From: an uncultured virus (IMG/VR IMGVR_UViG_3300031087_000494)
Lineage: Duplodnaviria > Heunggongvirae > Uroviricota > Caudoviricetes
Length of the DNA stretch: 20,000 bases
IMG/VR virus record: IMGVR_UViG_3300031087_000494
Strand: one strand, 5' to 3'
Shown here one piece after another: positions 328-18,751 of the stretch. The number at the start of each line of letters is the position of its first letter. Position 1 is the first letter of the stretch. The notes below the pieces were generated by a model. The model searched no databases, was not told where the DNA came from, and worked only from the letters and a program-made list of their open reading frames with translations. The position numbers and the translations under genes were made by a program.

Positions 328-1164
328 ATGCGCGCCATCACTGCTCCCAATTACGGGCTCCTAGGGGTCATGGGCGATGTGCACTCCCACGCACCCTGGA
401 CCCTGCAGGCCATCGAGCGCTTCGCGGCCCTGGGAGTGACTCACATCCTGCAGGTCGGTGACTTCGGAGTCTGGCCCACGGAGACCGGAGAGAACTTCCT
501 CCGGGTTGTGAACCGCAAGCTTCTCGAGCTCGGCGTGCTCATGGTTGTGGTTCCCGGCAATCACGAGAACTACACTCGCCTCGAGAACGAGCTCCGGCCG
601 GCAATCCATGACGGCAGCTTTCTGCAACTTCCGGAGTACGACGGGATCCTCTTCGCTGATCGCGGTCAGCGCTGGAACTGGGACGACACCGATTTCTGCG
701 CCCTCGGTGGAGCCAACTCCATCAACAAGGACAGCCTCGTACCCTTCGTGAGCTGGTGGCCTCAGGAGTCCATCAGCCTCGGAGATGTCTACCGCACGGT
801 GGCCGGCGGTCGAGCCGACATCATGCTCACCCATGAGGTTCCCGACGGTGTGCCCATCGTCCAGGAAGTCAGCCACCACGGTGAGGATCAGGGCTGGAGC
901 CCCGAGGCTCTCGGCTACGCCCAGGATTCTCGGGCCATGCTCCGACAGGCTGTGGACACCGTGCAGCCTGAGCTCCTGATCCACGGCCACTACCATGTGT
1001 TTGCGGATCTCCATGTGGAGCTCGGAGTGCTCGGCACCGACGAGTCCTACGCCATGCGCTCGGTCTGCTTGGACATGGAGGAGACTCCTGGCAACATGGC
1101 TCTCCTTCAGCCCCGAGCCCGCAGGCTCACCAGGTACGACGACTGGATGGCTCAGAACAGCTGA
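328..1164 (+). CDS. Calcineurin-like metallophosphoesterase
   Basis: All five motifs in order: GDVH, VGDFG, GNHEN, LTHE, HGHYH. RBS-like AGAAAGG upstream. Confidence 0.9.
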   Translation: MRAITAPNYGLLGVMGDVHSHAPWTLQAIERFAALGVTHILQVGDFGVWPTETGENFLRVVNRKLLELGVLMVVVPGNHENYTRLENELRPAIHDGSFLQLPEYDGILFADRGQRWNWDDTDFCALGGANSINKDSLVPFVSWWPQESISLGDVYRTVAGGRADIMLTHEVPDGVPIVQEVSHHGEDQGWSPEALGYAQDSRAMLRQAVDTVQPELLIHGHYHVFADLHVELGVLGTDESYAMRSVCLDMEETPGNMALLQPRARRLTRYDDWMAQNS

Positions 1165-1179
1165 GTAGTCCGCAGCGAG

Positions 1180-1208
1180 TTGCCTCTGGGTCCATCAGTG
1201 TGTACGAT
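1180..1208 (+). promoter_or_regulatory. Promoter embedded in a perfect inverted repeat
   Basis: TTGCCT (1180-1185), 17-nt spacer, TACGAT (1203-1208). Confidence 0.6.
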
Positions 1209-1222
1209 GGACCCAGAGGCAA
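1180..1222. repeat. Perfect 17-bp inverted repeat (hairpin/terminator-like)
   Basis: TTGCCTCTGGGTCCATC (1180-1196) and GATGGACCCAGAGGCAA (1206-1222), 9-nt loop. Confidence 0.95.
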
Positions 1223-1246
1223 TTGCCCACGAGATAGGAGACGGAG

Positions 1247-1834
1247 ATGACCAGCTTCGATAGCGCAGCGCTCTGCGCGAAGCGTCCAGTGTTCTATCTC
1301 GACTGGGACGGTGTAGTCAACTTCTTCGGAAGCCGCAATCAGTACCTCAAGAAGGCTGGCTTCGGCTACCTTCGCCGCGGTTCCGCCATGCCCCGCCCCG
1401 CCGACCTGCCACCGGGAGGCCTAAGCTTCGGCCCCTTTCCCCTCAACTGGTCGGCCGAGCTCCTCCGCAAGCTCGCAGCTCTTCCCGTGGACATCGTCTT
1501 TCTGAGCACCTGGCGACACTCCTTCTCTGAGCTCCTCAGCGCAACGCAGTGGGAGCTGGAGAACTACCGGGTCCTCGACTGGACGGATGGCCCCAAGGGC
1601 TCTGAGCACGCTGGCAAGGTGCCCGCACTGGTGGCCGATCAGCTCGCCGATCCCCGGCCCTTCATCTGGGCAGATGACGAAGCTCACAGCTTCTACGGTG
1701 AGGAAGATCGGGCCAAGCTCGCCGGCATCCCCCAGCTCCTCCTTGCCCCGGACGAGGCGCTCGGACTCACGGCCGCCGACTATGCGGCAGTGCTGGATTT
1801 CCTCTACGACCTCAATGCTCTAGGGGAGGCCTAG
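1247..1834 (+). CDS. HAD-superfamily phosphatase (Swiss Army Knife RNA-repair-like HAD)
   Basis: Motif I YLDWDGV, motif II LSTWR, conserved K (AGK), motif IV FIWADDE, C-terminal GLT. RBS AGGAG at 1236-1240. Confidence 0.8.
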   Translation: MTSFDSAALCAKRPVFYLDWDGVVNFFGSRNQYLKKAGFGYLRRGSAMPRPADLPPGGLSFGPFPLNWSAELLRKLAALPVDIVFLSTWRHSFSELLSATQWELENYRVLDWTDGPKGSEHAGKVPALVADQLADPRPFIWADDEAHSFYGEEDRAKLAGIPQLLLAPDEALGLTAADYAAVLDFLYDLNALGEA

Positions 1835-1837
1835 CCC

Positions 1838-4633
1838 GTGACCATCTTCCAGAGGACCGAGGTCTCGGTGGAGGATCTCCTTCGGGAGTTCTATGAGGCA
1901 CCTGACTTCAGCTTCCTCCAGCACTGGGATGGAGAGAGCTCGATCTTTCCTCGGCTCAACGGCGCTCCGATCCGCCCCCTGGACCTCAAGGGTGCGGATC
2001 GGAGCAAGCTCGAGGCAGCGGTCGCATCGGCCCGTCGGCTCGAACCCCTCCTCGCCGAAACCGGTCCCGAGCTCCGAGCGAACCGCGGATCCTTCAGCAA
2101 CTCGATCTCTACCTTCCAGCGCGACGGTGAGCTCTCGGTGGTGGCCATCCCCGTGACCGGGGAAACTCGCCGCAGCCTCGCTGGCTTCCTCCTCGCCCGG
2201 GAGCTCATGGCCTTCGGCAATGCTGAACAGTTCTTCGAAGAGCTTCGAGACCTCGAGGTTCTTGCCGACGGAGCACAGCGCGCGCTGAGCCACAAAAGGC
2301 GCTGGTGGAAGCGCCGGGACGACAGCGATCTCGAGATCGACCTTCGCCGGGCTTCCCAGCTCCTCCTTGCGGCAGAGGCCACCGGGCCCTCCCAGCTCGG
2401 CCGCATCGTCGGCAATCTCGAGGGCCGCATCGCCCTCGCCACGGCGGAGAAGCCCTCCGTGAGCGATTGGCAGCATGCTCTCCTGAAGCTCGAATCAGTG
2501 AGCCAGCTCCCCAAGAGCGCGGTGGTCTCAACCATCGAGATCAGCGAGTCCGGCGAGCTCACGAAGACTCTGGATGCAATCGCTGTGGGCTTCCACCGGC
2601 TCGATCAGCGGCGCATAGTCCTCGAGAACAGCCTGGACACGCTGAAGGCAGCCAAGGTGCAGGACTACGCTCGCAGCTTCAGCCTCGAGAGCTTCGCCCA
2701 GCGAGTCAAGGGCAAGGGCTTCCCCCGCAAGACCCTGGAGCGCATGGTCCTCGATGACCGGCGCCGCTTCAGCGTCGAGGAAGACCGCTCTCCGAGCATC
2801 GGAGATGTGCTCGACCTCGCAGAGCACAGCCCAAGCCTCTTCCGCAACAAGTCCATGGGCTCAGCCCTGAAGCTCCTCCAGGACTTCTTCGAGGATCAGA
2901 AAAACCTGCTCAGCTACCCTCGGCTCACCGACAGTGGCGATGCCTTCGACAGCTTCCTCGTGGCGGCCCACGAGCTCACCCTGGAGCAGACCCGACCCTA
3001 TCCCGTGCGGGCTCAGTTCGATGTGCTCTACAAGCTCCTCCAGGGTTCACCCAACGAGCTCCATCTCATCGGTCGCACCAAGGAGTCCATTTCCAGGCTC
3101 ATCGGCTCTGTCAATCTCTACTCAGATGCTGACAGGCGAGCAAGACTCTCGGCAGAAGCTGAGGTGTCCACGGTGGAGCGCGCTCGAGACTTCTTCCAGG
3201 CGAACCCCGCGAGCTTCCAGTCGGTGCTCTCCAACCTGGGCTTCAATGCGCTCTCCCTGGAGCAGATCTCCGGCTTCCTCGCACCCGAGCTCACCTCGAA
3301 GATCAAGAACCTGGATCTCGACCTCGCGGGCATGCGCTCACAGCTTCGCTCCTACCAGAGCTTCGGAGCCCAGTATGCGCTGAACCAGAAGCGCGTGATC
3401 CTCGGCGACGAGATGGGCCTCGGGAAGACCGTGACCGCTCTGGCCCTCGCCAAGCACCTGAGCAATGAGGGCGCGCAGCGCATCCTTGTGGTGGTGCCCC
3501 TGGCCGTGCTCGAGAACTGGCGGCGCGAGGTGCTCAAGCACACTGACTACACGCCTCGGGTGCTCTACGGAGAGAGCTTGGACGATGATCTCGATCTCTG
3601 GGTGCAGTCCGGTGGGCTGGCTCTGGCCACCTTCGAGAGCATTCAGCGAGTCAACCAGCGGGATGTGCTCGCGGCGCTGAACTCCATCGACCTCACGGTG
3701 GTGGATGAGGCTCACCTGATCAAGAATCCCAGGACCAAGCGCACCCGGGCTGTGGTCCCCTGGCTCGGTGGCTCCGAGCGCGCACTGCTCATGACGGGCA
3801 CTCCCCTGGAGAACAGCCTCGATGAGTTCGTGCAGCTCATCCGCTATGTGCAGCCCAACCTGCAGCTTCCAGAAGACATGCTCGACTATGCTGCCTTCCG
3901 GAAGGCCATCGCGCCGGTCTACCTCCGCCGCAACCAGGTCGATGTGCTCCAGGAGCTCCCTGAGCTTCAGGTCGACGAGGACTTCATCGAGCTCTCTGAG
4001 GCCGATGTGGAGAACTACAAGCGCGCCCTGGCTAAGCGAGATTGGCACGGAGCTCGCCAGGCCCGGGTGCTCGCCGGAGAGAAGTCCTCTACAGTCCAAT
4101 GGATCCAGAGCACCGTTAAGGAGTCCGTGGACAATGGCCACAAGGTGCTGATCTTCAGCTACTACCTGGACACCATCGCCGTGCTCCAGCGCTGCCTCAG
4201 CGAGGATGATCCCTACACTCCGCTCACCGGAGCCCTGAGCTCCAAGGAACGGCAGGAAATGGTGGACAAGTTCACCGAAGCCAAGGAACCAGGCGTACTT
4301 CTCGCCCAGGCCAGCGCCGGTGGAACGGGGCTCAACATCCAGGCAGCATCGGTGGTCATCATCGTCGAGCCTCAGCTCAAGCCCTCCATCGAGGATCAGA
4401 TGATCGGCCGATCCCACCGCATGGGTCAGACCAAGGCCGTCCGGGTCATCAAGCTCCGCGGAGCGAACACTACGGACGAGCGCTGGGTTGCACTTGTAGA
4501 GGAAAAGCGTAAGGTATTCTCTGCGACCGCTGGAATCTCAGATGCGGCCGCCCTCGACAGCGCACTAGAAGGTGCCGGTAGCTCCAGGGAGATCATGGAG
4601 GCCGAGCGCAGGGCCTGGGGAATCGACTCATGA
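1838..4633 (+). CDS. SNF2-family (SF2) helicase/ATPase with long N-terminal extension
   Basis: LRSYQ, GDEMGLGKT, VVPLAVLENW, DEAH, TGTPLEN, YLRR, KVLIFS, GGTGLNIQAAS, QMIGRSHRMGQ. GTG start with GGGGAGG RBS. Confidence 0.92.
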   Translation: MTIFQRTEVSVEDLLREFYEAPDFSFLQHWDGESSIFPRLNGAPIRPLDLKGADRSKLEAAVASARRLEPLLAETGPELRANRGSFSNSISTFQRDGELSVVAIPVTGETRRSLAGFLLARELMAFGNAEQFFEELRDLEVLADGAQRALSHKRRWWKRRDDSDLEIDLRRASQLLLAAEATGPSQLGRIVGNLEGRIALATAEKPSVSDWQHALLKLESVSQLPKSAVVSTIEISESGELTKTLDAIAVGFHRLDQRRIVLENSLDTLKAAKVQDYARSFSLESFAQRVKGKGFPRKTLERMVLDDRRRFSVEEDRSPSIGDVLDLAEHSPSLFRNKSMGSALKLLQDFFEDQKNLLSYPRLTDSGDAFDSFLVAAHELTLEQTRPYPVRAQFDVLYKLLQGSPNELHLIGRTKESISRLIGSVNLYSDADRRARLSAEAEVSTVERARDFFQANPASFQSVLSNLGFNALSLEQISGFLAPELTSKIKNLDLDLAGMRSQLRSYQSFGAQYALNQKRVILGDEMGLGKTVTALALAKHLSNEGAQRILVVVPLAVLENWRREVLKHTDYTPRVLYGESLDDDLDLWVQSGGLALATFESIQRVNQRDVLAALNSIDLTVVDEAHLIKNPRTKRTRAVVPWLGGSERALLMTGTPLENSLDEFVQLIRYVQPNLQLPEDMLDYAAFRKAIAPVYLRRNQVDVLQELPELQVDEDFIELSEADVENYKRALAKRDWHGARQARVLAGEKSSTVQWIQSTVKESVDNGHKVLIFSYYLDTIAVLQRCLSEDDPYTPLTGALSSKERQEMVDKFTEAKEPGVLLAQASAGGTGLNIQAASVVIIVEPQLKPSIEDQMIGRSHRMGQTKAVRVIKLRGANTTDERWVALVEEKRKVFSATAGISDAAALDSALEGAGSSREIMEAERRAWGIDS

Positions 4634-5289
4634 GTAAGGAAACGAGAAGGACTGTGAACAGGACTCGAGCACTCATCGGCAGCGGAGTGATCGCGGCGAG
4701 CTCCATCGGCTCTGCGATCTTCCTCGCGGTGGCTCCCAGCGTGTTCCTCACGGCGACTCCGAGCACCGTCGCCATCGGCCTTGGAGCCATCGGCATCGGA
4801 TCGACGCTCATCGCCTCCCGGTCGAAGAAGAGGGCAGTGGAGAGCTCAGCCGTCAGTGCTCTCACCATGGGGAGTCAGATCTCCGAGGAGCTCCGGGAGA
4901 AGGTCGCTGAGCTCCACGGACTCGCTCAGGTCTACGAGGAGCGCAACAGTCCCCTGTTCCCCGCGGTCAATGGTGTCCTCGCCAATGTGCAGGAGCTCTT
5001 CGAGCGCATGGGTACCCACACCGATGAGCAGTCTGCCCGCATCGCAGGAGTCCGCTACACGGACACGCTCACCAAGCTCAACCGGGCGCTGGGTAGGAAC
5101 TACTACCTCGACATCGAGGCCCATCCGGAGCTCTGGAGCGATCCCGATGGTCGCATGGAGGCAGTGGAGACAGCTGTCAACGCCACCGGAGAACAGATCC
5201 TCCGCAACATCCGAGAGCTCAACAGCAGCCGGGATCTCATCTACCAGCTTTCCCTGGACGCCCTCGAGCGCTCTGCCGCCAACAGCTAA
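4630..5289 (+). CDS. Two-TM membrane protein with helical C-terminal domain, possibly XpaC-like
   Basis: Two N-terminal hydrophobic segments followed by an amphipathic helical region (RYTDTLTKL...YYLDIE). ATGA overlap with the SNF2 stop. The XpaC resemblance is by eye only. Confidence 0.55.
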   Translation: MSKETRRTVNRTRALIGSGVIAASSIGSAIFLAVAPSVFLTATPSTVAIGLGAIGIGSTLIASRSKKRAVESSAVSALTMGSQISEELREKVAELHGLAQVYEERNSPLFPAVNGVLANVQELFERMGTHTDEQSARIAGVRYTDTLTKLNRALGRNYYLDIEAHPELWSDPDGRMEAVETAVNATGEQILRNIRELNSSRDLIYQLSLDALERSAANS

Positions 5290-5297
5290 AGATCAGT

Positions 5298-5326
5298 TTG
5301 CCACAGTTTCGAACTTGGTGTAGGAT
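5298..5326 (+). promoter_or_regulatory. SigA-type promoter
   Basis: TTGCCA (5298-5303), 17-nt spacer, TAGGAT (5321-5326). Inverted repeat AGTTTCGA (5305-5312) / TCGAAACT (5326-5333) straddles the -10. Confidence 0.7.
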
Positions 5327-5367
5327 CGAAACTAACACTGTCCACACCGAAAGAGAGGGAGACAGCT

Positions 5368-5838
5368 ATGGCTGAGATCCTGGACGAGCTCAACAGAGCA
5401 AAGACGGCCGCCATGAAGGCGAAGATCGCAGGTGAAAGCGAGAATGAGAAGCTCCTGGCTGGAATTCGGCTCGGCGTGGTTCGTACGCTCATCGGAGAGG
5501 TCGAGAAGGACTCGAAGCTTGAGAACCCCCGTGGGGCACTCGCCGTGCTCAAGTCCGAGCTCAAGAAGCGCAACGAGATGGCTGATCTTTTCCGGAAGTC
5601 CGGCAAGGACTCTCATGCCTTCAAGGAGCTCGACGAAGCTCGCGTCGTGGAGGAGTTCCTTCCGAAGGCACCCAGCGCAGAGCAGCTCGAGACTGTGATC
5701 GCCAAGGTCATCAAGGACAAGGAGCTCAAGGGCACCGGTGGCAAGGGCATCGGTCCAGTCATGGCTGAGCTCAAGGTCACCTTCGAGGCCTACGACGGCA
5801 AGGTCGCCTCCGAGATCGCTCGGAAGCTCCTGGCCTAG
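5368..5838 (+). CDS. GatB/YqeY domain protein
   Basis: Typical YqeY pattern and length: AMKAK, ELKKRNEMADLF, E..VVEEFLPK, GPVMAELK, DGKVASEIARKLL; 156 aa. Confidence 0.85.
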   Translation: MAEILDELNRAKTAAMKAKIAGESENEKLLAGIRLGVVRTLIGEVEKDSKLENPRGALAVLKSELKKRNEMADLFRKSGKDSHAFKELDEARVVEEFLPKAPSAEQLETVIAKVIKDKELKGTGGKGIGPVMAELKVTFEAYDGKVASEIARKLLA

Positions 5839-5871
5839 AGCGCCATAAGTTTCAGGTCGCTAGAGCCATCA

Positions 5872-5916
5872 AAGGCCGGCACACCCTGTGAAAATGGTGT
5901 GCCGGCCTTCGCTTTT
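5872..5916 (+). terminator. Rho-independent terminator
   Basis: 14-bp stem AAGGCCGGCACACC (5872-5885) / GGTGTGCCGGCCTT (5896-5909), followed by CGCTTTT. Confidence 0.8.
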
Positions 5917-5983
5917 CCCGCTACTTTCGGCACCATAGACTGACAGCAGACTATCTTCAACCCAGCAACTAAGGATCAGAAAA

Positions 5984-6568
5984 GTGCTCCAGTACTCCCC
6001 CGACAAGTTCCAGTGGCTCATGCTCACTGACTCAAGCCCCATCGGCTTCCTTCTCCTCATCCTCGGCCTCGCGCTCCTCGTGAAGATGGCAGTCACGGCC
6101 TACAGGAAGAAGGACGACCGGTCCAACTACCTCAAGTTCGGCATCCCCGGCATCGTTCTGGTGGCCATCGGGGTCTTCCTTCCGAGCTTCGCCAGCACCG
6201 CTCCTCTTGCGGAGGGCGTGGCCAAGAACCTCTCCTCCACCGCGAACTTCAAGGATGTGAAGCTCCTCCATCTGGAGACAGTTTCGGACACTCCTTTCAC
6301 CGAGGGCTCCGTGGTCTTCGTGGGTACCGCCACCGATGTGGACGGCGACCCTCGACAGTTCCGCTACACCCAGTACGCTGACTTCGGCATCTACGACATC
6401 GTGGGCTTCGATAAGCCCGCCGTGGACCTCAAGGACCAGAGCTACCAGGACCTCGAGGACGGCCTCGACAGCCGCAAGGATGACCTCAGCGCCAGTGAGT
6501 CGCCGAAGCCCAGCCAGAGCTCCAGGAGCACCTCGACTCCGACGCCCTCAGCAACTCCCAAGTCCTGA
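5984..6568 (+). CDS. Hypothetical membrane protein
   Basis: Two hydrophobic helices separated by a basic loop (YRKKDDR), a soluble domain and an S/T/P-rich tail. GTG start with AAGGA upstream. Confidence 0.75.
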   Translation: MLQYSPDKFQWLMLTDSSPIGFLLLILGLALLVKMAVTAYRKKDDRSNYLKFGIPGIVLVAIGVFLPSFASTAPLAEGVAKNLSSTANFKDVKLLHLETVSDTPFTEGSVVFVGTATDVDGDPRQFRYTQYADFGIYDIVGFDKPAVDLKDQSYQDLEDGLDSRKDDLSASESPKPSQSSRSTSTPTPSATPKS

Positions 6569-6612
6569 GCATCGGATCCTAGCGGACTCTTGAGCACACA
6601 GAAGGAGAGCCC

Positions 6613-7671
6613 GTGGTTCAGAACCTCATAGCAGTGGCGCTCATCGCCCTGGGAGCGACCTTCGCCCTCTGGCCGGTGCCACTGCGAAAGATCAGCACCT
6701 TCTTCGACACGCTGATCCACGAGGCTGGCCACGGGCTCTCCTCTCTTCCCTTCGGAGCTCCACTGCCCTCGATCACTGTTCGGAAGAACACTTCGGGCGA
6801 GACCCAGTCCGCCATGGGCTACCTCCACCAGTTCCTTCCCCTGGGCCTGGGAGTGCTCACCGAGAAGATCGCGCGCTTCTTGAGCCTCATGGCCGGCTAC
6901 AGTGCGAGCCTCATTCTAGCAGCATTCCTCCTCGTGCTGATTCCTCTCAGAGAGATCCACCTCGAGCCCTGGGTGCTGCTCCTCATTGCTCAGATCGCTC
7001 TAGCAACGCTCCTCTGGACGCTGGTACGGGTCACAGAGAGCCCGCTGACCTTCCTGGCCGTGGCGGCTGGCTTCACCTTCATCTACCTCCTGCTCTTCTC
7101 CTGGAACTGGCTGATCTACGGTGGAGTGATCCTGGGAGCTGTCGTGCTCTTCTTCCTTGCGAGGAGCCTTCTGGCTACGCTGGCAGTGGCCCTCACCGTC
7201 ACCGCTCCTCTGGTGCCCATCGCTGAGCTCACCGTGCTCCAGGGAACCGCCCTGGGGAAGCTCATCGAACCCCTGGGGCTAACGGTGGACATCGCGCTCT
7301 TCTCTCGGGTGCTCTTCGGGGCGCTCCTGCTCTTCCTGGCGCTCTGCTGCAGGAGCTGGCTGAGCTTCGGGCTCACGGCGCTGATCCTGGGCTCCGTGTT
7401 CGGGCTGCTCTTCGTTCCGGGATTGCCCGTGGCCTTCGTGTTCGCCTTCGTGGCTGGGATGCTCACGGTTGCAGGCGTTCGCAGCCTGATGGAGCTCCAT
7501 CGGATCACCTTCAGCGCTACGGCGTCCCACTGGCAGAGCGAACGAGTTGCCACGGACATGGTCTTCGCAGCTGAAGAAATCGGTGGCGATCCTCGCTACT
7601 GGTACTGGGCCCAATGCTTCGTAGCTGGAGTTGGATTCCTTGGTATCGTCGTTTTTGGCTACTTCCTCTAG
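6613..7671 (+). CDS. M50B-like intramembrane zinc metalloprotease
   Basis: TLIHEAGH (HExxH), SGET, AGY, late TD motif; many TM helices. RBS GAAGGAG. Confidence 0.82.
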   Translation: MVQNLIAVALIALGATFALWPVPLRKISTFFDTLIHEAGHGLSSLPFGAPLPSITVRKNTSGETQSAMGYLHQFLPLGLGVLTEKIARFLSLMAGYSASLILAAFLLVLIPLREIHLEPWVLLLIAQIALATLLWTLVRVTESPLTFLAVAAGFTFIYLLLFSWNWLIYGGVILGAVVLFFLARSLLATLAVALTVTAPLVPIAELTVLQGTALGKLIEPLGLTVDIALFSRVLFGALLLFLALCCRSWLSFGLTALILGSVFGLLFVPGLPVAFVFAFVAGMLTVAGVRSLMELHRITFSATASHWQSERVATDMVFAAEEIGGDPRYWYWAQCFVAGVGFLGIVVFGYFL

Positions 7672-10142: not shown

Positions 10143-10694
10143 ATGCAGACATTCCTTCCCTACGCAGACTACGCAGCTTCCATGGCCACCCTGGACGACA
10201 AGCGCCTCGGCAAGCAGCGCGTGGAGGCCTATCAGGCGCTTCTGCAGCTCACGAGCCTCAAGATGGTGGATTTCCCGGTCTGGGAGCCTCGCTTCGGAGG
10301 CTGGAGCCACCCCGCCATGGCCATGTGGTCGGGCCACGAGATCGAGCTCCTCAAATACATCGAGGCCTGCTGCAACGAGTGGACAAGTCGAGGGGCCAAG
10401 GACACCGTCCTGGAGAAGTCGGCCTTCACCCTGGAGCTCGCCCGGGAGGATGACTGGAGCACTGAGCCTCCGGCCTGGCTCGGCGATCCCGAGTTCCACC
10501 GAAGCCACCGCTCCAACCTCATCCGCAAGGACCCGGCTCACTACAGCCCGCTCTTCCCCGAGGACGGACCCGAGCTCGAGTATGTGTGGCCCACCACGGA
10601 GATCCCCATGAGGGACCGGAAGATCTACAACTTCAAGCGCATGATCGAGCTCAAGGAAGCTGAGTTCGAGGCCATTCGCTCAGAGGCTTCCTAA
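10143..10694 (+). CDS. Pyrimidine-dimer DNA glycosylase-like protein (DenV / MSMEG_6728 family)
   Basis: MQTFLPY, LDDKRLGKQRVEA.Q, HPAMAMWSGHE, PPAWLGDPEFHRSHRSNLIRKDP, YVWP. Confidence 0.88.
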   Translation: MQTFLPYADYAASMATLDDKRLGKQRVEAYQALLQLTSLKMVDFPVWEPRFGGWSHPAMAMWSGHEIELLKYIEACCNEWTSRGAKDTVLEKSAFTLELAREDDWSTEPPAWLGDPEFHRSHRSNLIRKDPAHYSPLFPEDGPELEYVWPTTEIPMRDRKIYNFKRMIELKEAEFEAIRSEAS

Positions 10695-10803
10695 GCCCCT
10701 CGGCACTCCAGGCGAAGCGTACCGATGGAGCTGGACTGTAGCCGTCCTAGAGCGGCTCCTGCGGCCGTAGGTGGTGCCATCGGGAATGGGACGGCAACTA
10801 CAG

Positions 10804-10832
10804 TTGACAGGAGCTGCTGATGATTGTAGGAT
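10804..10832 (+). promoter_or_regulatory. SigA-type promoter
   Basis: TTGACA (10804-10809), 17-nt spacer, TAGGAT (10827-10832). Confidence 0.8.
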
Positions 10833-10877
10833 CGGTTCCATAGTACACCACGCAACCGAACTCTAGGAATCAAGCAG

Positions 10878-11951
10878 ATGCCACTCTCCCTGACGAAGAT
10901 CACCGAGTACATGCAGCACGGCCTGAACATCTACATCACGGGCAAGGCAGGTACCGGTAAGACCGAGGTCCTCAAGGCTGCCGCCAAGAAGAACAACCTC
11001 TGCATGGGCTACATGTCTGCTCCGACCCTGGATGCCTATGTGGACCTCGTGGGTATCCCCGTGGCCAAGATGGACAAGCAGCTCAAGAAGCGCGTGCTCA
11101 AGTTCATCCGCAAGCAAGACTTCGATGACATCGAGGTGCTCTTCATCGACGAGCTCCCCCGAGGCGAGCTCAAGACCCTCAACGCGATCTTCGAGATCGT
11201 GCAGTTCGGCACCATCAACGGCGAGGTCGCCATGCCGAAGCTCAAGTGCGTGGTCGCTGCCGGCAATCCGATGACCGACGAGTACCAGGGTCAGCAGGAG
11301 CTCGACGAGGCACTCCTCGACCGCTTCGACATGTACCTCGAGACGGACACCGAAGCGGATCGGGCCTACTTCATCGGCGAGTTCGGCACTGAGATCGGAA
11401 AGGCCCTCGTGGGCTGGCACAAGGCCCACGATCACGAGGCCAACGGCTATCTCTCCCCTCGACGCCTGGAGAAGATCGGCAAGACCTGGCTGAAGATGCC
11501 GGAGCTCTCCACCATCAAGGCCATGGTGCCTCCCGGTGGACGCTTCAATGTTCAGAAGCTCCAGGATGACCTCGAGCGCGCTCGCGCCAAGGGTCTCGGT
11601 GCGCAGGCAGTGAGCAGCACCGCTCCCATCTGGGATCAGATTCCCTACATGAGCACCGGCGAGCTCCGCAAGAATCGTGAGGACATCATCCGGGTGCTCC
11701 CCGACCTGGACGCTCGGGGTCAGGCTCAGGTCACCGAGGCCCTGGCCAAGGGCCTCCAGCGAGGCTTCACCGTGGACGGGATCCTGGACAACTGGAAGGT
11801 TGCCCTGGAGTACTTCAGCCACAGCGACCGCTCCGCCCTGCTCTCGGGCTGGACCGCAAGCAAGAACAGCGAGTTCCTCCAGAAGGCCTCTGAGAAGAAG
11901 GTTTCCCTGGGGAAGAACCTCGTCAAGCCGGACTCGGTTATCAGCAACTGA
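10878..11951 (+). CDS. MoxR/dynein-related AAA+ ATPase
   Basis: Walker A GKAGTGKT, DLVGIP, Walker B LFIDE, sensor 1 AAGNP, Arg finger DEALLDRF, sensor 2 SPRR. Confidence 0.88.
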   Translation: MPLSLTKITEYMQHGLNIYITGKAGTGKTEVLKAAAKKNNLCMGYMSAPTLDAYVDLVGIPVAKMDKQLKKRVLKFIRKQDFDDIEVLFIDELPRGELKTLNAIFEIVQFGTINGEVAMPKLKCVVAAGNPMTDEYQGQQELDEALLDRFDMYLETDTEADRAYFIGEFGTEIGKALVGWHKAHDHEANGYLSPRRLEKIGKTWLKMPELSTIKAMVPPGGRFNVQKLQDDLERARAKGLGAQAVSSTAPIWDQIPYMSTGELRKNREDIIRVLPDLDARGQAQVTEALAKGLQRGFTVDGILDNWKVALEYFSHSDRSALLSGWTASKNSEFLQKASEKKVSLGKNLVKPDSVISN

Positions 11952-11957
11952 GGAACT

Positions 11958-12001
11958 CGCGCTCTGGGAGCAGTTCAGTTGACAGCTGCTCCCAGAGCGC
12001 G
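11958..12001. repeat. Perfect 16-bp inverted repeat with TTGACA in the loop
   Basis: CGCGCTCTGGGAGCAG (11958-11973) / CTGCTCCCAGAGCGCG (11986-12001). Confidence 0.95.
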
Positions 12002-12007
12002 TAGGAT
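11979..12007 (+). promoter_or_regulatory. SigA-type promoter
   Basis: TTGACA (11979-11984), 17-nt spacer, TAGGAT (12002-12007). Confidence 0.8.
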
Positions 12008-12039
12008 CGAATCGACACCGCATTCGAGCAAGGATACCC

Positions 12040-13917
12040 ATGGCCAACAGCAATAGCCTCGACGGCTACTACGCAGCCATCAACTGGCTCTCGGACCACC
12101 GGCCCCACATGGTTGGCTACATCACCGCCCTGGGTATGCCCCAGAACGATCTGCGCACTAAGCGAGCCATGGTGGTCGCCGGCCGGGACCTGAAGCCCAA
12201 GCTCTACGCCAACGACGAGTTCCTCCAGAAGATCGGTCCCGCACAGGCGGCAGGCGTGCTCGTCCACGAGTGGCGCCATGTGCTCCTCAACCACTTCAGC
12301 GAGAGCTTCGACCCCAAGCCAGCCTGGCGCTACGAGCAGGTGCTGAGCGATGCCCACGAGGTCGTCATCAATGACCACATCGAGCTCGCCGGCTACGAGC
12401 TCCCCGCCGACTGCGTTCGGGGCTCCAATCGAGGTGGCCACTTCTACGGCTACTGGACCACCGACGAGGCCTACGGTCCCATGGAAGAGTGGTACCTGAG
12501 CCAGCAGCAAGAGCCCCAGGGGAACCCCCAGAACGAGCAGGATGACTCTGACAGCTCCGACTCAGGAGATGAGAGCCAGAGCGACTCCAGCGATGGTGGC
12601 TCCAGCGACCAAAATGGATCGCAGGATCAGTCAGAAGCTAATGACGGAGGCCAGGGAGGCGACGGCGCGGGCGAGGGCCAGGCTGGAGAGTCTTCAGGTG
12701 ACGCAGAGAGCTCTGAGAGCGGTTCTTCCGAGGGTTCCTCGAGTAGCTCCAGCGAACCTTCTTCGAGCTCTCCCTCGAGCGACCAGTCCGAAGGAGATTC
12801 ACAGTCCGAAGACTCCTCCAGCCAGCAGAGCGGTGGTTCAGCCGAAAGCTCCAGCTCCGGTGGCTCTTCCTCCTCTGAGGGATCTTCCCAGGAAGGTGCA
12901 GATCAGTCTGAGGGCAGCTCGACCGCCGATGCTGCCAGCCAGGGAGCCTCCCCTTCGGCAGACGGTCCGAGCGACGGCGGCTCGCAGGATGACGGAAGCT
13001 GCGACAATGGCACGGGCCTCGTCGAGGACGCCGACGGCGATCTTCGGGAGATGACCAAGGACGAACTCGAGGACTTCCTCGACGAGCTCAATCGGCGAGT
13101 AGCTGAGGCAATCCGTCAGCAGCCCATGCCCGATGAGGAGACGCCCGAGGAAGACGAGCTCGACTCCATGGATCAGGAGGTCGCTGAGGCCATCGATCCG
13201 AGCCGAGCTCAGGGCTACTCCAAGGCCGGCACCATGAGCGCAGCTGAGAAGGTTCTCGCCGGTGGTAAGCTCCACCTGGGCTGGCTCAAGCTCCTTCAGC
13301 GCATCAACCCCAATGTGGGTAAGGAAGACGGAGGCATCAACAGCAAGGCTGCCTATAACTGGGCCCGGCCTCGCCGTAGCACCTCGCTGGTTCGAGGCGC
13401 CAACCTCCCCTCCCCCGGAGCGCCTCGCGACCGTGGGGCTGGAGGCAAGCTTCGACCCACGGTGCTCATCGCTCTGGACTTCTCCCTGTCCATCGACCGG
13501 AGGCTCGCTCACGCCATGAAGGACATGGCCCAGAGCATCCCAGAACAGCACATCGAGGCCAGGTGCTTCACCTTCTCCACGATAGCCATTCCCTTCGACT
13601 TTAGGGCTTCGAGCAACCGCACCGCTTCAGGTGGCACTGACTTCAGCTGCATCGAGGTCGAGGCTCGCAAGATCCAGAAGCAGACCGGGGAGTACCCCTA
13701 TGTGATGTGCCTCACCGACGGTCAGGCCTGGTTCGGAGGCGGCTACGGTGGGGCAACCGGCCTTGCCCCTACCGCCCAGCAGCTCAAGGATCGCTGGCTC
13801 TGGGTGGATGTGCTCACCGAGGATGACGACCGAGCCTTCACGAGCTCGACTCCCTACCCTCAGGTGAAGGCACAGGCCAACAAGTCCGCTCTTCCCTACG
13901 ACCGCAGCAAGCTCTAG
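12040..13917 (+). CDS. DUF2201-like metallopeptidase-vWA protein (MoxR partner) with long low-complexity linker
   Basis: N-terminal VLVHEWRHVLLNH (HExxH) and EVVIND; S/G/D/E/Q-rich linker; NWARPRR; vWA MIDAS DFSLS, GGTDF, LTDG. Directly follows the AAA+ ATPase. Confidence 0.85.
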   Translation: MANSNSLDGYYAAINWLSDHRPHMVGYITALGMPQNDLRTKRAMVVAGRDLKPKLYANDEFLQKIGPAQAAGVLVHEWRHVLLNHFSESFDPKPAWRYEQVLSDAHEVVINDHIELAGYELPADCVRGSNRGGHFYGYWTTDEAYGPMEEWYLSQQQEPQGNPQNEQDDSDSSDSGDESQSDSSDGGSSDQNGSQDQSEANDGGQGGDGAGEGQAGESSGDAESSESGSSEGSSSSSSEPSSSSPSSDQSEGDSQSEDSSSQQSGGSAESSSSGGSSSSEGSSQEGADQSEGSSTADAASQGASPSADGPSDGGSQDDGSCDNGTGLVEDADGDLREMTKDELEDFLDELNRRVAEAIRQQPMPDEETPEEDELDSMDQEVAEAIDPSRAQGYSKAGTMSAAEKVLAGGKLHLGWLKLLQRINPNVGKEDGGINSKAAYNWARPRRSTSLVRGANLPSPGAPRDRGAGGKLRPTVLIALDFSLSIDRRLAHAMKDMAQSIPEQHIEARCFTFSTIAIPFDFRASSNRTASGGTDFSCIEVEARKIQKQTGEYPYVMCLTDGQAWFGGGYGGATGLAPTAQQLKDRWLWVDVLTEDDDRAFTSSTPYPQVKAQANKSALPYDRSKL

Positions 13918-14380: not shown

Positions 14381-14409
14381 TTGACAGACGCGCCGCGATT
14401 GGTTAGGAT
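14381..14409 (+). promoter_or_regulatory. SigA-type promoter
   Basis: TTGACA (14381-14386), 17-nt spacer, TAGGAT (14404-14409). Inverted segments TATCCTA/TAGGATA and ATCGCGG/CCGCGAT overlap it. Confidence 0.8.
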
Positions 14410-16894: not shown

Positions 16895-18751
16895 ATGACC
16901 GATATCTCCGTAGCAACCTACTCCCTGGTGTCCGGGGACAATGGCGAGCAGGTGAGCATCGTTTTCTCCAACGGAGAGAGCGAGACCGTCACCGACAAGC
17001 ACGCCAACTTCCAGTCCATCGTTCAGGCGCTGATCTCGAAGCCCGCCGGCTACGGCCCCGTGGTCTACGACCTCGCCAACATCGCCAAGACCGTGGGCCG
17101 CAAGTTCCGCAACCTCTCCGAGCGAGTCACCACCGATGGTTCGGAGCTCTACTTCGACGGTGACGCCATCGATGGCTCCCTGGCCTCCTTCATCCTGAAG
17201 CTCCTCCGGGAGGACGCTCAGAAGTCCGCTGCCTTCTTCGGCGGCGACGCTGCAGATGCTGGTGACGAGGAGTCGCAGGTCACCTGGGAGGCGCTGGTCA
17301 AGTTCCTCGAGCTCCTCTACGCCAACCCCAACCCGCAGTCCCGGGAGTCGCTCTACGGCTTCATCTCCCGCCACGGACTCACCATCCGCAAGGACGGTCA
17401 CTTCATCGCCTACAAGGGTCTCGACGGTGACTTCGGTTCGAAGCACAAGGGCTACGGCATCGTGGACGGCGTCGAGGTCAACGGAACCCTCTTCAACAAG
17501 CCCGGCAGCGTCCTGCGCTTCCCCCGCAAGGATGTGAACTCCAACACCGCCGTCGGCTGTGCTCAGGGTCTCCACGCCGGTACCCACGCCTACGCAACCA
17601 ACTGGGCAAGTGGCGGCAAGCTGGTGGCAGTTGCCATCAACCCCACCAATGTGGTGTCGGTGCCGGATGACTGCTACTACCAGAAGATCCGGGTCTGCGA
17701 GTACGAGGTCCTCAACGAGATCGATCCCCTGGCTGAGGCTGCTGCTACCCGCGGCGCTGAGTCCTCCTCCCTGTGGACTGACAGCACCTGGGACGACAAC
17801 TACGATGGCCACGCCATCGAGAATGTCCAGGTCGATGACCGGATCTCCTTCGACTATGTCGGAGTGGATGGCCGTGAGCAGTTCATCGAGGAGGCCGAGG
17901 TCGACGAGGTCCAGAGCGACTACCTCAAGGCCTTCGTTCCCGCCAAGAACGGCTACCGCACCTTCCTCTTCGCTGGTATCTCGAACTTCGAGAACCACAG
18001 CCAGGACGAGGATGAGGATGAGGAGTACGGCTACGACGACGGCTCTGAGGAGTTCGAGGACGAGTACTCCAACAGCTACTCCGACGACGAGGACGCTCAG
18101 GACGATGAGCCCGAGGTTGCTCAGGAGGAGCCCAAGGCTCAGAACGGCAAGGACTTCTTCGATGGTCTCGCTGACATCCTGCACGGAGGTGGAGGCTCCA
18201 CCCAGGGGGAGTTCCTCAAGAAGGCTCAGGAGTTCTTCGCCGACGGTGACCTGAAGTCCAAGGCCGAGAAGGTCCTCAAGGACTCTGGTCTCACCGATGT
18301 TGTGGACGCCTTCAAGGAGGGTCTCCAGAGCACCGACGGTGACTCCAGCGCCGATGAGGTCACCGAGGGGTCCACCGTGAGCTTCGGCTACACCGACAAC
18401 ATGGGTGCCCACCAGGAGATCAAGGACGCTCGAGTCGAAGAGGTGCAGGCCGAGTACTTCAAGGCCTTCGTCCCTTCCAAGGGTGGCTACCGGACCTTCC
18501 GCTTCGAGGGAGTCTCCGACCTCAAGGTCGCCCAGGGTGGTTCGCAGGACCGGAGCGAGATCGAGGCCACCGTCGCCGGGCTCAAGACCTCTGACATCAT
18601 CTCAGTGGAGCTCAACAAGGACGGAGAGCTCCTGAAGCTCGACAACGCGATCGTGCTCATCAGCGTGGCCGGTCAGGTCACCATCAAGCTCCAGGGTCGA
18701 GGCTACAAGGCCTTCACCGCTGAGGATGTGGTGAGCATCACGAAGCACTGA
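16895..18751 (+). CDS. rIIB: RIIB-like protein with C-terminal tandem WYL/Sm-like repeats
   Basis: LYANPNPQSRESLYGF, DGHFIAYKG, PRKDV...CAQGLHAGT..YA, INPTNVVSVPDD...KIRVCEYEV match the RIIB core. About 310 further residues contain repeats. RBS GAAGGAAGGG. Confidence 0.85.
   Translation: MTDISVATYSLVSGDNGEQVSIVFSNGESETVTDKHANFQSIVQALISKPAGYGPVVYDLANIAKTVGRKFRNLSERVTTDGSELYFDGDAIDGSLASFILKLLREDAQKSAAFFGGDAADAGDEESQVTWEALVKFLELLYANPNPQSRESLYGFISRHGLTIRKDGHFIAYKGLDGDFGSKHKGYGIVDGVEVNGTLFNKPGSVLRFPRKDVNSNTAVGCAQGLHAGTHAYATNWASGGKLVAVAINPTNVVSVPDDCYYQKIRVCEYEVLNEIDPLAEAAATRGAESSSLWTDSTWDDNYDGHAIENVQVDDRISFDYVGVDGREQFIEEAEVDEVQSDYLKAFVPAKNGYRTFLFAGISNFENHSQDEDEDEEYGYDDGSEEFEDEYSNSYSDDEDAQDDEPEVAQEEPKAQNGKDFFDGLADILHGGGGSTQGEFLKKAQEFFADGDLKSKAEKVLKDSGLTDVVDAFKEGLQSTDGDSSADEVTEGSTVSFGYTDNMGAHQEIKDARVEEVQAEYFKAFVPSKGGYRTFRFEGVSDLKVAQGGSQDRSEIEATVAGLKTSDIISVELNKDGELLKLDNAIVLISVAGQVTIKLQGRGYKAFTAEDVVSITKH
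17825..18523 (+). repeat. Intragenic duplication of a 55-aa domain (17825-17989 and 18359-18523)
   Basis: Ungapped manual alignment gives 27/55 identical residues, including EVQ..Y.KAFVP.K.GYRTF.F.G.S. Confidence 0.9.

Follow-up and report, generated by a model that had tools for sequence, protein, structure and literature searches.

The RIIB gene and its parts

The DNA analysed here (the window) is a stretch of 20,000 nucleotides from an uncultured virus of the Caudoviricetes (IMG/VR record IMGVR_UViG_3300031087_000494). It encodes an RIIA protein with a GHKL-type ATPase domain and, directly downstream, an RIIB protein that is extended by three WYL-like barrels (Table 1). The RIIB-WYL gene is a single unbroken open reading frame (ORF), and the repeat-containing stretch that was first noted lies in its 3' half. 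Residues 130-278 match five PHROG RIIB families (best phrog_609, E 1.7e-43), and RIIB structures in BFVD are matched at E 1e-17. With the PHROG match of the upstream gene, the identification of an RIIA-RIIB pair in the initial annotation stands. Scans of the window RIIB protein with Pfam, NCBIfam and PADLOC gave no family; the core bears the precomputed label PF26926.

Table 1. Positions of the RIIA and RIIB-WYL genes and of the parts of RIIB-WYL in the window (pLDDT, predicted local distance difference test; HTH, helix-turn-helix)
Feature	Position	Strand	Evidence and remarks
RIIA, N-terminal GHKL-type ATPase, 784 aa	14459..16813	+	phrog_612 E 1.1e-53; HATPase_c_3 36.5 bits
RIIB-WYL fusion gene	16895..18751	+	618 aa; PHROG match, model mean pLDDT 82
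RIIB N-terminal beta/helical region, residues 1-157	16895..17365	+	No HTH, unlike RIIB of T6, SP1, D527 and wV8 (alignment, HTH matches on those)
RIIB conserved core, residues 158-282	17366..17740	+	Possible ADP-ribosyltransferase-like fold; invariant K174, R211, C222, H227, K264, R266, Y270
R1, WYL-like Sm barrel, residues 307-367	17813..17995	+	pLDDT 89-97, helix and five strands; 21.3 bits against outgroup WYL profile
Acidic disordered linker, residues 369-420	17999..18154	+	48% Asp+Glu; pLDDT <50 over 377-417; least conserved part among close relatives
Four short low-confidence helices, residues 418-477	18146..18325	+	Model and alignment; variable between relatives
R2, WYL-like Sm barrel, residues 485-546	18347..18532	+	Most WYL-like of the three copies
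R3, degenerate Sm/SH3-like barrel, residues 553-618	18551..18748	+	Groove residues lost

Sequence relations of the repeats

R1 (17825-17989) and R2 (18359-18523) are identical at 27 of 55 amino acids without gaps, exactly as first described, and at 101 of 165 nucleotides. The acidic tract and the helical segment reported between them are also present (Table 1). The degenerate third copy that had been proposed, R3 (18581-18748), is real. The window's own R3 scores 2.4 bits against the R1/R2 profile, a value reached by 20 of 1000 shuffled sequences, and orthologous R3s score up to 26.4 bits; the R3 profile aligns with that of R1/R2 at 63% (E 9e-6), and the predicted fold of R3 is that of R1 and R2.

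Descent from WYL was assessed with an outgroup profile of 22 domains from 15 Pfam-positive proteins outside the window's clade. R1 and R2 (26.1 bits) reach scores against it that are matched by 0 of 1000 shuffles for each, and the R1/R2 profile aligns with the outgroup profile at 96.9% (E 2.6e-10). The comparison is mildly circular, since the window repeats had seeded the iterated search that set the domain borders. R3 alone gives 0.9 bits, with 210 of 1000 shuffles as high, and 4.0% in the profile-profile alignment. R3 is tied to WYL only through R1 and R2 and is therefore counted as a degenerate copy. In the ESM Atlas R2 fell in a WYL cluster at 0.83, a lead only, and sequence searches of solved structures gave nothing significant.

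P0048, a relative with the same three repeats and 77% core identity to the window protein, is over the Pfam WYL cut-off (23.5 against 21.8 bits) and has a PADLOC WYL match at E 1e-7. It is among the 16 of 94 rescanned RIIB-core relatives that pass this cut-off. With the R1/R2 profile, 15 matches were obtained among 1.84 billion representatives. Five are close relatives, one (P0039) is a distant repeat-bearing RIIB, two are mini-domains on their own, one (P0040) is made up of repeats, and the other six, long and repetitive, were treated as noise. On these comparisons R1 and R2 are WYL-derived and R3 is a degenerate copy; because the window repeats fall below the Pfam cut-off, they are named WYL-like and not members of PF13280.

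Stand-alone WYL-like proteins of 63 and 57 residues (P0033, P0041) are kin to the repeats. P0040 (774 aa) consists by eye of about eight WYL-like repeats and nothing else; it passes Pfam WYL and bears the source name YafY-like regulator.

Predicted fold and groove residues

The models of R1, R2 and R3 (pLDDT about 90-97) each have an N-terminal helix and then five strands forming an Sm-like barrel. A structural search placed WYL regulators at nine of the top 15 positions among 48,161 chains, which bears out the WYL/Sm-like barrel of the initial annotation. A single-sequence fold of R2-R3 (pLDDT 41.5) was unusable.

The WYL domain has four basic groove residues (PMC4012209). For PafB, single-stranded DNA (ssDNA) binding is reported to need Y196, R181, R204, R208, R211 and R214, and to be abolished by R211A/R214A (PMC11804915). 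The FxY, G and RTF positions of the motif are kept in the repeats and the final Arg is lost, with Gly in its place, as had been noted. Groove positions were counted by spacing from the WYL Tyr, not by superposition. All 62 copies of R1 and R2 keep the beta-1 Tyr, a beta-2 Gln, Lys(+8) and Arg(+12), while being only about 40-50% identical. By this spacing Lys(+8) and Arg(+12) match R204 and R208 of PafB, which are described as part of its ssDNA groove (PMC11804915). Position +15, that of PafB R211, is basic in 19 of 28 R1 and 25 of 34 R2 copies. Of the four basic groove residues, two are thus counted in R1 and three in R2, the last being Gly. The groove of R1 and R2 appears from its residues to be conserved but reduced, and that of R3 to be lost.

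Distribution and evolution

A search with the tail retrieved 22 proteins, among them that of the window, from 6693 candidates. Almost all share the three-repeat layout, and the final set comprised 27 proteins with all three. Since the layout is shared by relatives it is neither chance nor assembly error. An assembly artefact or a recent duplication is also ruled out by R1 and R3 each forming one group across relatives.

The fusion is not peculiar to the window: one to three repeat domains are carried by 66 of 124 RIIB proteins, such fusions are common in a metagenomic group, and in the RIIB-core search (138 proteins) 13 of the 120 listed relatives have a precomputed PF13280 label. A quick tree of 113 cores, for which a careful search did not finish, requires four changes of the repeat label, at least three of them forced by well-supported branches; gain or loss of the fusion must therefore have occurred at least twice. 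In a tree of 129 repeats, based on few columns, R1 forms one group and R3 another, so the three-repeat layout is old within the clade and single copies have been lost in places. Among close relatives R1 is identical at 35-51 of 56 positions and R2 at 39-52 of 57, compared with 18-28 of 45-49 for the acidic tract.

The repeat carriers are metagenomic assemblies, several of them contigs of 346, 475, 494, 543, 674, 683, 696 and 828 kb, and possibly represent an undescribed megaphage or megaplasmid lineage. Contigs in this size range (346-828 kb) lie behind L002, L005, L007, P0060, P0076, P0079, P0048 and P0083. RIIB was also found on nine plasmids, and relatives occur on Variovorax plasmids of about 800 kb (H106-H109). 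The RIIB of a named bacterial genome (L023, 5566-7338) appears split over two frames.

The repeat was absent from 103 other RIIB frames (80 IMG/VR loci, the best of 338; 18 GTDB loci; four cultured phages) and from 12 cultured-phage RIIBs inspected directly, those four included. A tblastn search with the tail (E up to 1) matched none of 50,697 phage records, and IMG/VR yielded no relative in scans that started from the window protein, from the alignment of its close clade or from the adjacent AAA ATPase. Seeming WYL-region extensions in Microbacterium phages were unrelated tails on inspection.

Of the proposal that a new system lies in the window, one part is sustained: the architecture is absent from the cultured phages and papers examined. 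The RIIB-WYL protein is nevertheless not a new system but a lineage-level variation on the familiar RIIA-RIIB module, and it occurs in a group of very large elements that are uncultured. Full-text searches of the literature turned up no RIIB-WYL fusion and no ADP-ribosyltransferase (ART) fold for RIIB, although the supplement of Iyer et al. (2021), subscription journals, bioRxiv supplements and the Pfam entry PF26926 may record either. Multi-WYL proteins and WYL fusions have been catalogued without rIIB in text or supplements (Makarova et al. 2014, PMC4012209).

Comparison with other RIIB and WYL proteins

As in rIIA-rIIB of T4 and T6, a GHKL-ATPase RIIA is followed by RIIB, and the invariant core residues of Table 1 are shared with T6 RIIB. 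The RIIBs of T6, SP1, D527 and wV8 start with an HTH (score above the cut-off in SP1, just under it in T6, weak in D527 and wV8) and stop at the core, whereas the window RIIB gave no HTH match, shows no HTH in the element order of its model and has a 340-residue tail that carries the three barrels. The best cultured relatives, RIIB-like proteins from large Streptomyces, Rhodococcus, Microbacterium and Arthrobacter phages, are 35-41% identical over residues 1-283 and have RIIA adjacent, but their tails are short and acidic, Cys-rich or basic, and the WYL-like repeat is absent in the eight inspected.

Other RIIBs bear other appendages: a KTSC domain in P0139, an RDxxGRF motif in 32 of 210 tails and at least two CxxC in 11 of 210. 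Tails with KTSC, RDxxGRF and CxxC may bind nucleic acid. A constant core with interchangeable small appendages suggests that the appendage aims the core at nucleic acid. Non-WYL appendages are found in P0089-P0130, L009, L190 and others. A 251-residue acidic RIIB tail (L020, 5553-7148) holds by eye another Sm-like domain, with no Pfam or repeat-profile match.

The repeats differ from the PF13280 regulators PafBC, DriD, BrxR and CapW in having no HTH, WCX or last Arg, an acidic surface and scores below the Pfam cut-off, and in sitting on a phage protein rather than a transcription factor. More than 90% of bacterial WYL proteins are reported to have an HTH (Mueller et al. 2019, PMC6789036). rIIB has been termed a transcription factor and rIIA a GHKL counter-defence protein (Iyer et al. 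2021, PMC7824862); for the window protein a PafBC-like transcription-factor role was rejected, there being no HTH. The best precedent for a tether is the C-terminal WYL of Thermotoga elfii Pif1, likewise an accessory module on a non-regulatory protein, as described in 10.1101/163188. It is a single WYL on a helicase with reported ssDNA binding, whereas the window barrels are known from sequence and model.

RIIA partner and genomic setting

The RIIA ORF opens at TTG 14381, and a promoter-like site (14381-14409) overlaps this codon. The real start is probably ATG 14459, preferred because of that site and because cluster members have 784 aa. RIIA adjoins RIIB in 95 of 106 loci. Structure prediction for RIIA with RIIB residues 3-280 gave 0.52, against 0.00 for the best control. 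Of the solved pairs 116 of 157 reached the mark for a complex, as did 2 of 215 mismatched ones; those that reached it at 0.60 or below were only 18 of the 157 and both mismatches. The runs agree in at least 79% of contacts and partner pLDDT is at least 73. The prediction hints weakly at a complex of RIIA with the RIIB core. A sequence search of solved structures with RIIB found no RIIA or RIIB relative.

The gene order is DenV-like glycosylase, MoxR-type AAA ATPase, vWA-metallopeptidase, RIIA, RIIB and DEDD exonuclease, and it is kept in six other loci as far as each reaches (synteny set L001-L007). The DenV-like pyrimidine-dimer glycosylase, the ATPase and the vWA-metallopeptidase, which has a long Ser/Asp/Glu tract, occupy 10143-13917; their order with RIIA-RIIB is kept in L003-L006, and the glycosylase is unmatched in L007. 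Genes for a metallophosphoesterase, a HAD_SAK_2 phosphatase, an SNF2 helicase, a YqeY-like protein and an M50B peptidase lie at 328-7671. Corresponding to sequence right of the window end, L002 (12915-16476) and L007 (13272-16966) have a vWA protein, a PP2C phosphatase and a Ser/Thr kinase in a row, followed in L002 by an RseP-like M50 peptidase. This row we take to resemble a TerY-phosphorylation triad, here on a mobile element. The loci around RIIB revealed no neighbouring gene for a WCX, an HTH or a stand-alone WYL.

Only four records, each of a jumbo phage, are matched by the AAA ATPase, and on these matches the element is probably a huge phage, although RIIB occurs on plasmids too. The GC content of 62% and the closest cultured RIIBs, from Streptomyces, Rhodococcus, Microbacterium and Arthrobacter phages, point to a high-GC Gram-positive host.

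ADP-ribosyltransferase likeness of the RIIB core

The model of the RIIB core bears a weak structural likeness to ARTs. Identity to the rifamycin ADP-ribosyltransferase Arr (PDB 9iaf; PF12120) is 14%. The catalytic residues of Arr are H-Y-D, and the canonical ART triads are H-Y-E/D and R-S-E; the RIIB counterparts, read by eye from consensus lines and not superposed, are Lys, His and Lys/Arg. Alignment of the core with Arr, Tpt1 and DUF952 by hhalign gave less than 1%, and the positive controls between those families failed as well (0.02-7.6%). The profiles took 22 of 30 Arr loci, 12 of 13 Tpt1 loci (four from unpublished genomes and a partial one having been set aside) and 21 of 21 DUF952 loci (three partial ones set aside). 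For K174 and H227 the conservation figures from this comparison are partly circular, the locus rows having been chosen by motif. The ESM Atlas gave nothing for the core. A 2022 survey of viral NAD/ADPr systems, by the same group as Iyer et al., does not have 'rII' in text or supplement (PMC9503650).

Possible role of the barrels

The evidence tips slightly towards R1 and R2 acting as a low-affinity, multivalent tether or switch for single-stranded nucleic acid, a role ranked above protein binding and above a decoy. On this view the RIIA-RIIB module belongs to a very large mobile element, probably a huge phage, and its RIIB has gained C-terminal WYL-derived barrels on long flexible linkers. R1 and R2 would bind ssDNA or RNA ends that arise from replication, recombination or defence attack, each with low affinity and together with higher avidity. 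The bound barrels would then tether the pair of RIIA ATPase and RIIB core at that site or switch it on, much as the accessory WYL of Thermotoga Pif1 does for its helicase. R3 could serve as a spacer or protein contact, and the barrels would stand in for the HTH with which T-even RIIB begins. More speculatively, an ART-fold core with a Lys/His/Lys-Arg site might act on a defence protein or a nucleotide signal.

Several observations weigh against a nucleic-acid role. Hfq, Tudor and other Sm/SH3 barrels score within 1 Z unit of the WYL matches, and the fold alone therefore picks no ligand. The window protein and its repeats do not reach the curated Pfam WYL cut-off, and among 13 related repeats Pfam WYL matched two, at best E 0.075. 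Position +15 is Leu in the window R1 and Arg in R2, and +18, that of PafB R214, is Gly in 28 of 28 R1 and 29 of 34 R2 copies (57 of 62). The net charge of the window R1 and R2 is -7 and -2; the medians are -6 and -4.5, against 0 for other RIIB-borne WYLs. WCX, reported to form half of the ssDNA tunnel in PafBC and DriD (PMC11804915 for PafBC), was neither matched in the Pfam scan of the window protein nor seen in the element order of the model. The repeat is lacking in 58 of 124 RIIBs, and single copies have been lost in several relatives.

The acidic charge and the loss of the last Arg would suit WYL-derived barrels repurposed as protein-binding or oligomerising Sm/Tudor-like modules, which bind each other or a basic partner (a host defence, nucleoid or phage protein), with the acidic linker as a nucleic-acid mimic. 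R3 is kept in 34 of 35 classified proteins of the window's clade although its groove is gone entirely, the top structural matches include CgeA, GerQ, Hfq, Spindlin and EDC3, and acidic tracts occur in 107 of 203 RIIB tails. The residues that are invariant in R1 and R2 are nevertheless those of the WYL groove, and sister RIIB groups have canonical basic WYL copies that pass the Pfam cut-off. We regard this explanation as rather unlikely.

A lower probability still is given to a decoy, in which the barrels soak up the ssDNA or nucleotide signal for host PafBC, BrxR or CapW and so damp defence induction independently of RIIB activity. A phage-derived ssDNA cue is reported to induce host WYL repressors (10.1101/2025.11.13.688357), WYL regulators are reported to be most numerous in Actinobacteria, the likely host group (PMC6789036), and the stand-alone and poly-WYL kin described above exist. 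A sponge, however, needs no fusion to RIIB, and the RIIB tree has the fusion at three or more separate places; in competition with host sensors, weakened grooves that lack WCX would also presumably do poorly. That the tail is a dispensable, drifting appendage without current function would fit a copy number of one to three and the many RIIBs with none, but is very improbable, being largely refuted by the stronger conservation of the repeats than of the linker and by the invariant polar residues that the repeats contain.

Significance for RIIA-RIIB

How RIIAB works is described as unclear, and RIIB is reported to be toxic and to trigger a gasdermin defence (10.1101/2023.05.28.542683; PMC11879866). 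For five coliphages RIIB is reported to overcome RexAB-type exclusion (PMC11879866), and 'anti-exclusion' would for the present lineage be a label carried over from T4 by analogy. The available parts of PMC13716836, PMC11077077 and PMC13434031 add no RII mechanism.

WYL domains are mostly known as bacterial sensors that switch on defence and DNA-damage genes, and here they are found on a phage counter-defence protein. The virus side may thus read the same ssDNA cue as the WYL sensors of the host, and the interchangeable tethers point to nucleic acid as the site of action of RIIA-RIIB.

The boldest lead is that RIIB is an unrecognised ART-fold enzyme with a Lys/His/Lys-Arg site, positioned or powered by RIIA and aimed at nucleic acid by a swappable tether, an HTH in T-even phages and one to three WYL barrels in uncultured elements of 340-830 kb. 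We consider it doubtful, but it is cheap to test in T4. The Arr-like core names the T4/T6 equivalents of K174, C222, H227, K264 and R266 as residues for mutation, and such mutants can be scored in the classic assay of T4 on a lambda lysogen. If the idea is true, the WYL barrels in this lineage would sense ssDNA and thereby allow a counter-defence reaction that depends on NAD. The mechanism of RIIB has been sought since Benzer's rII work, and the long-standing question of how rII overcomes RexAB, and of what makes RIIB toxic and a trigger of gasdermin defence, thereby becomes directly testable.
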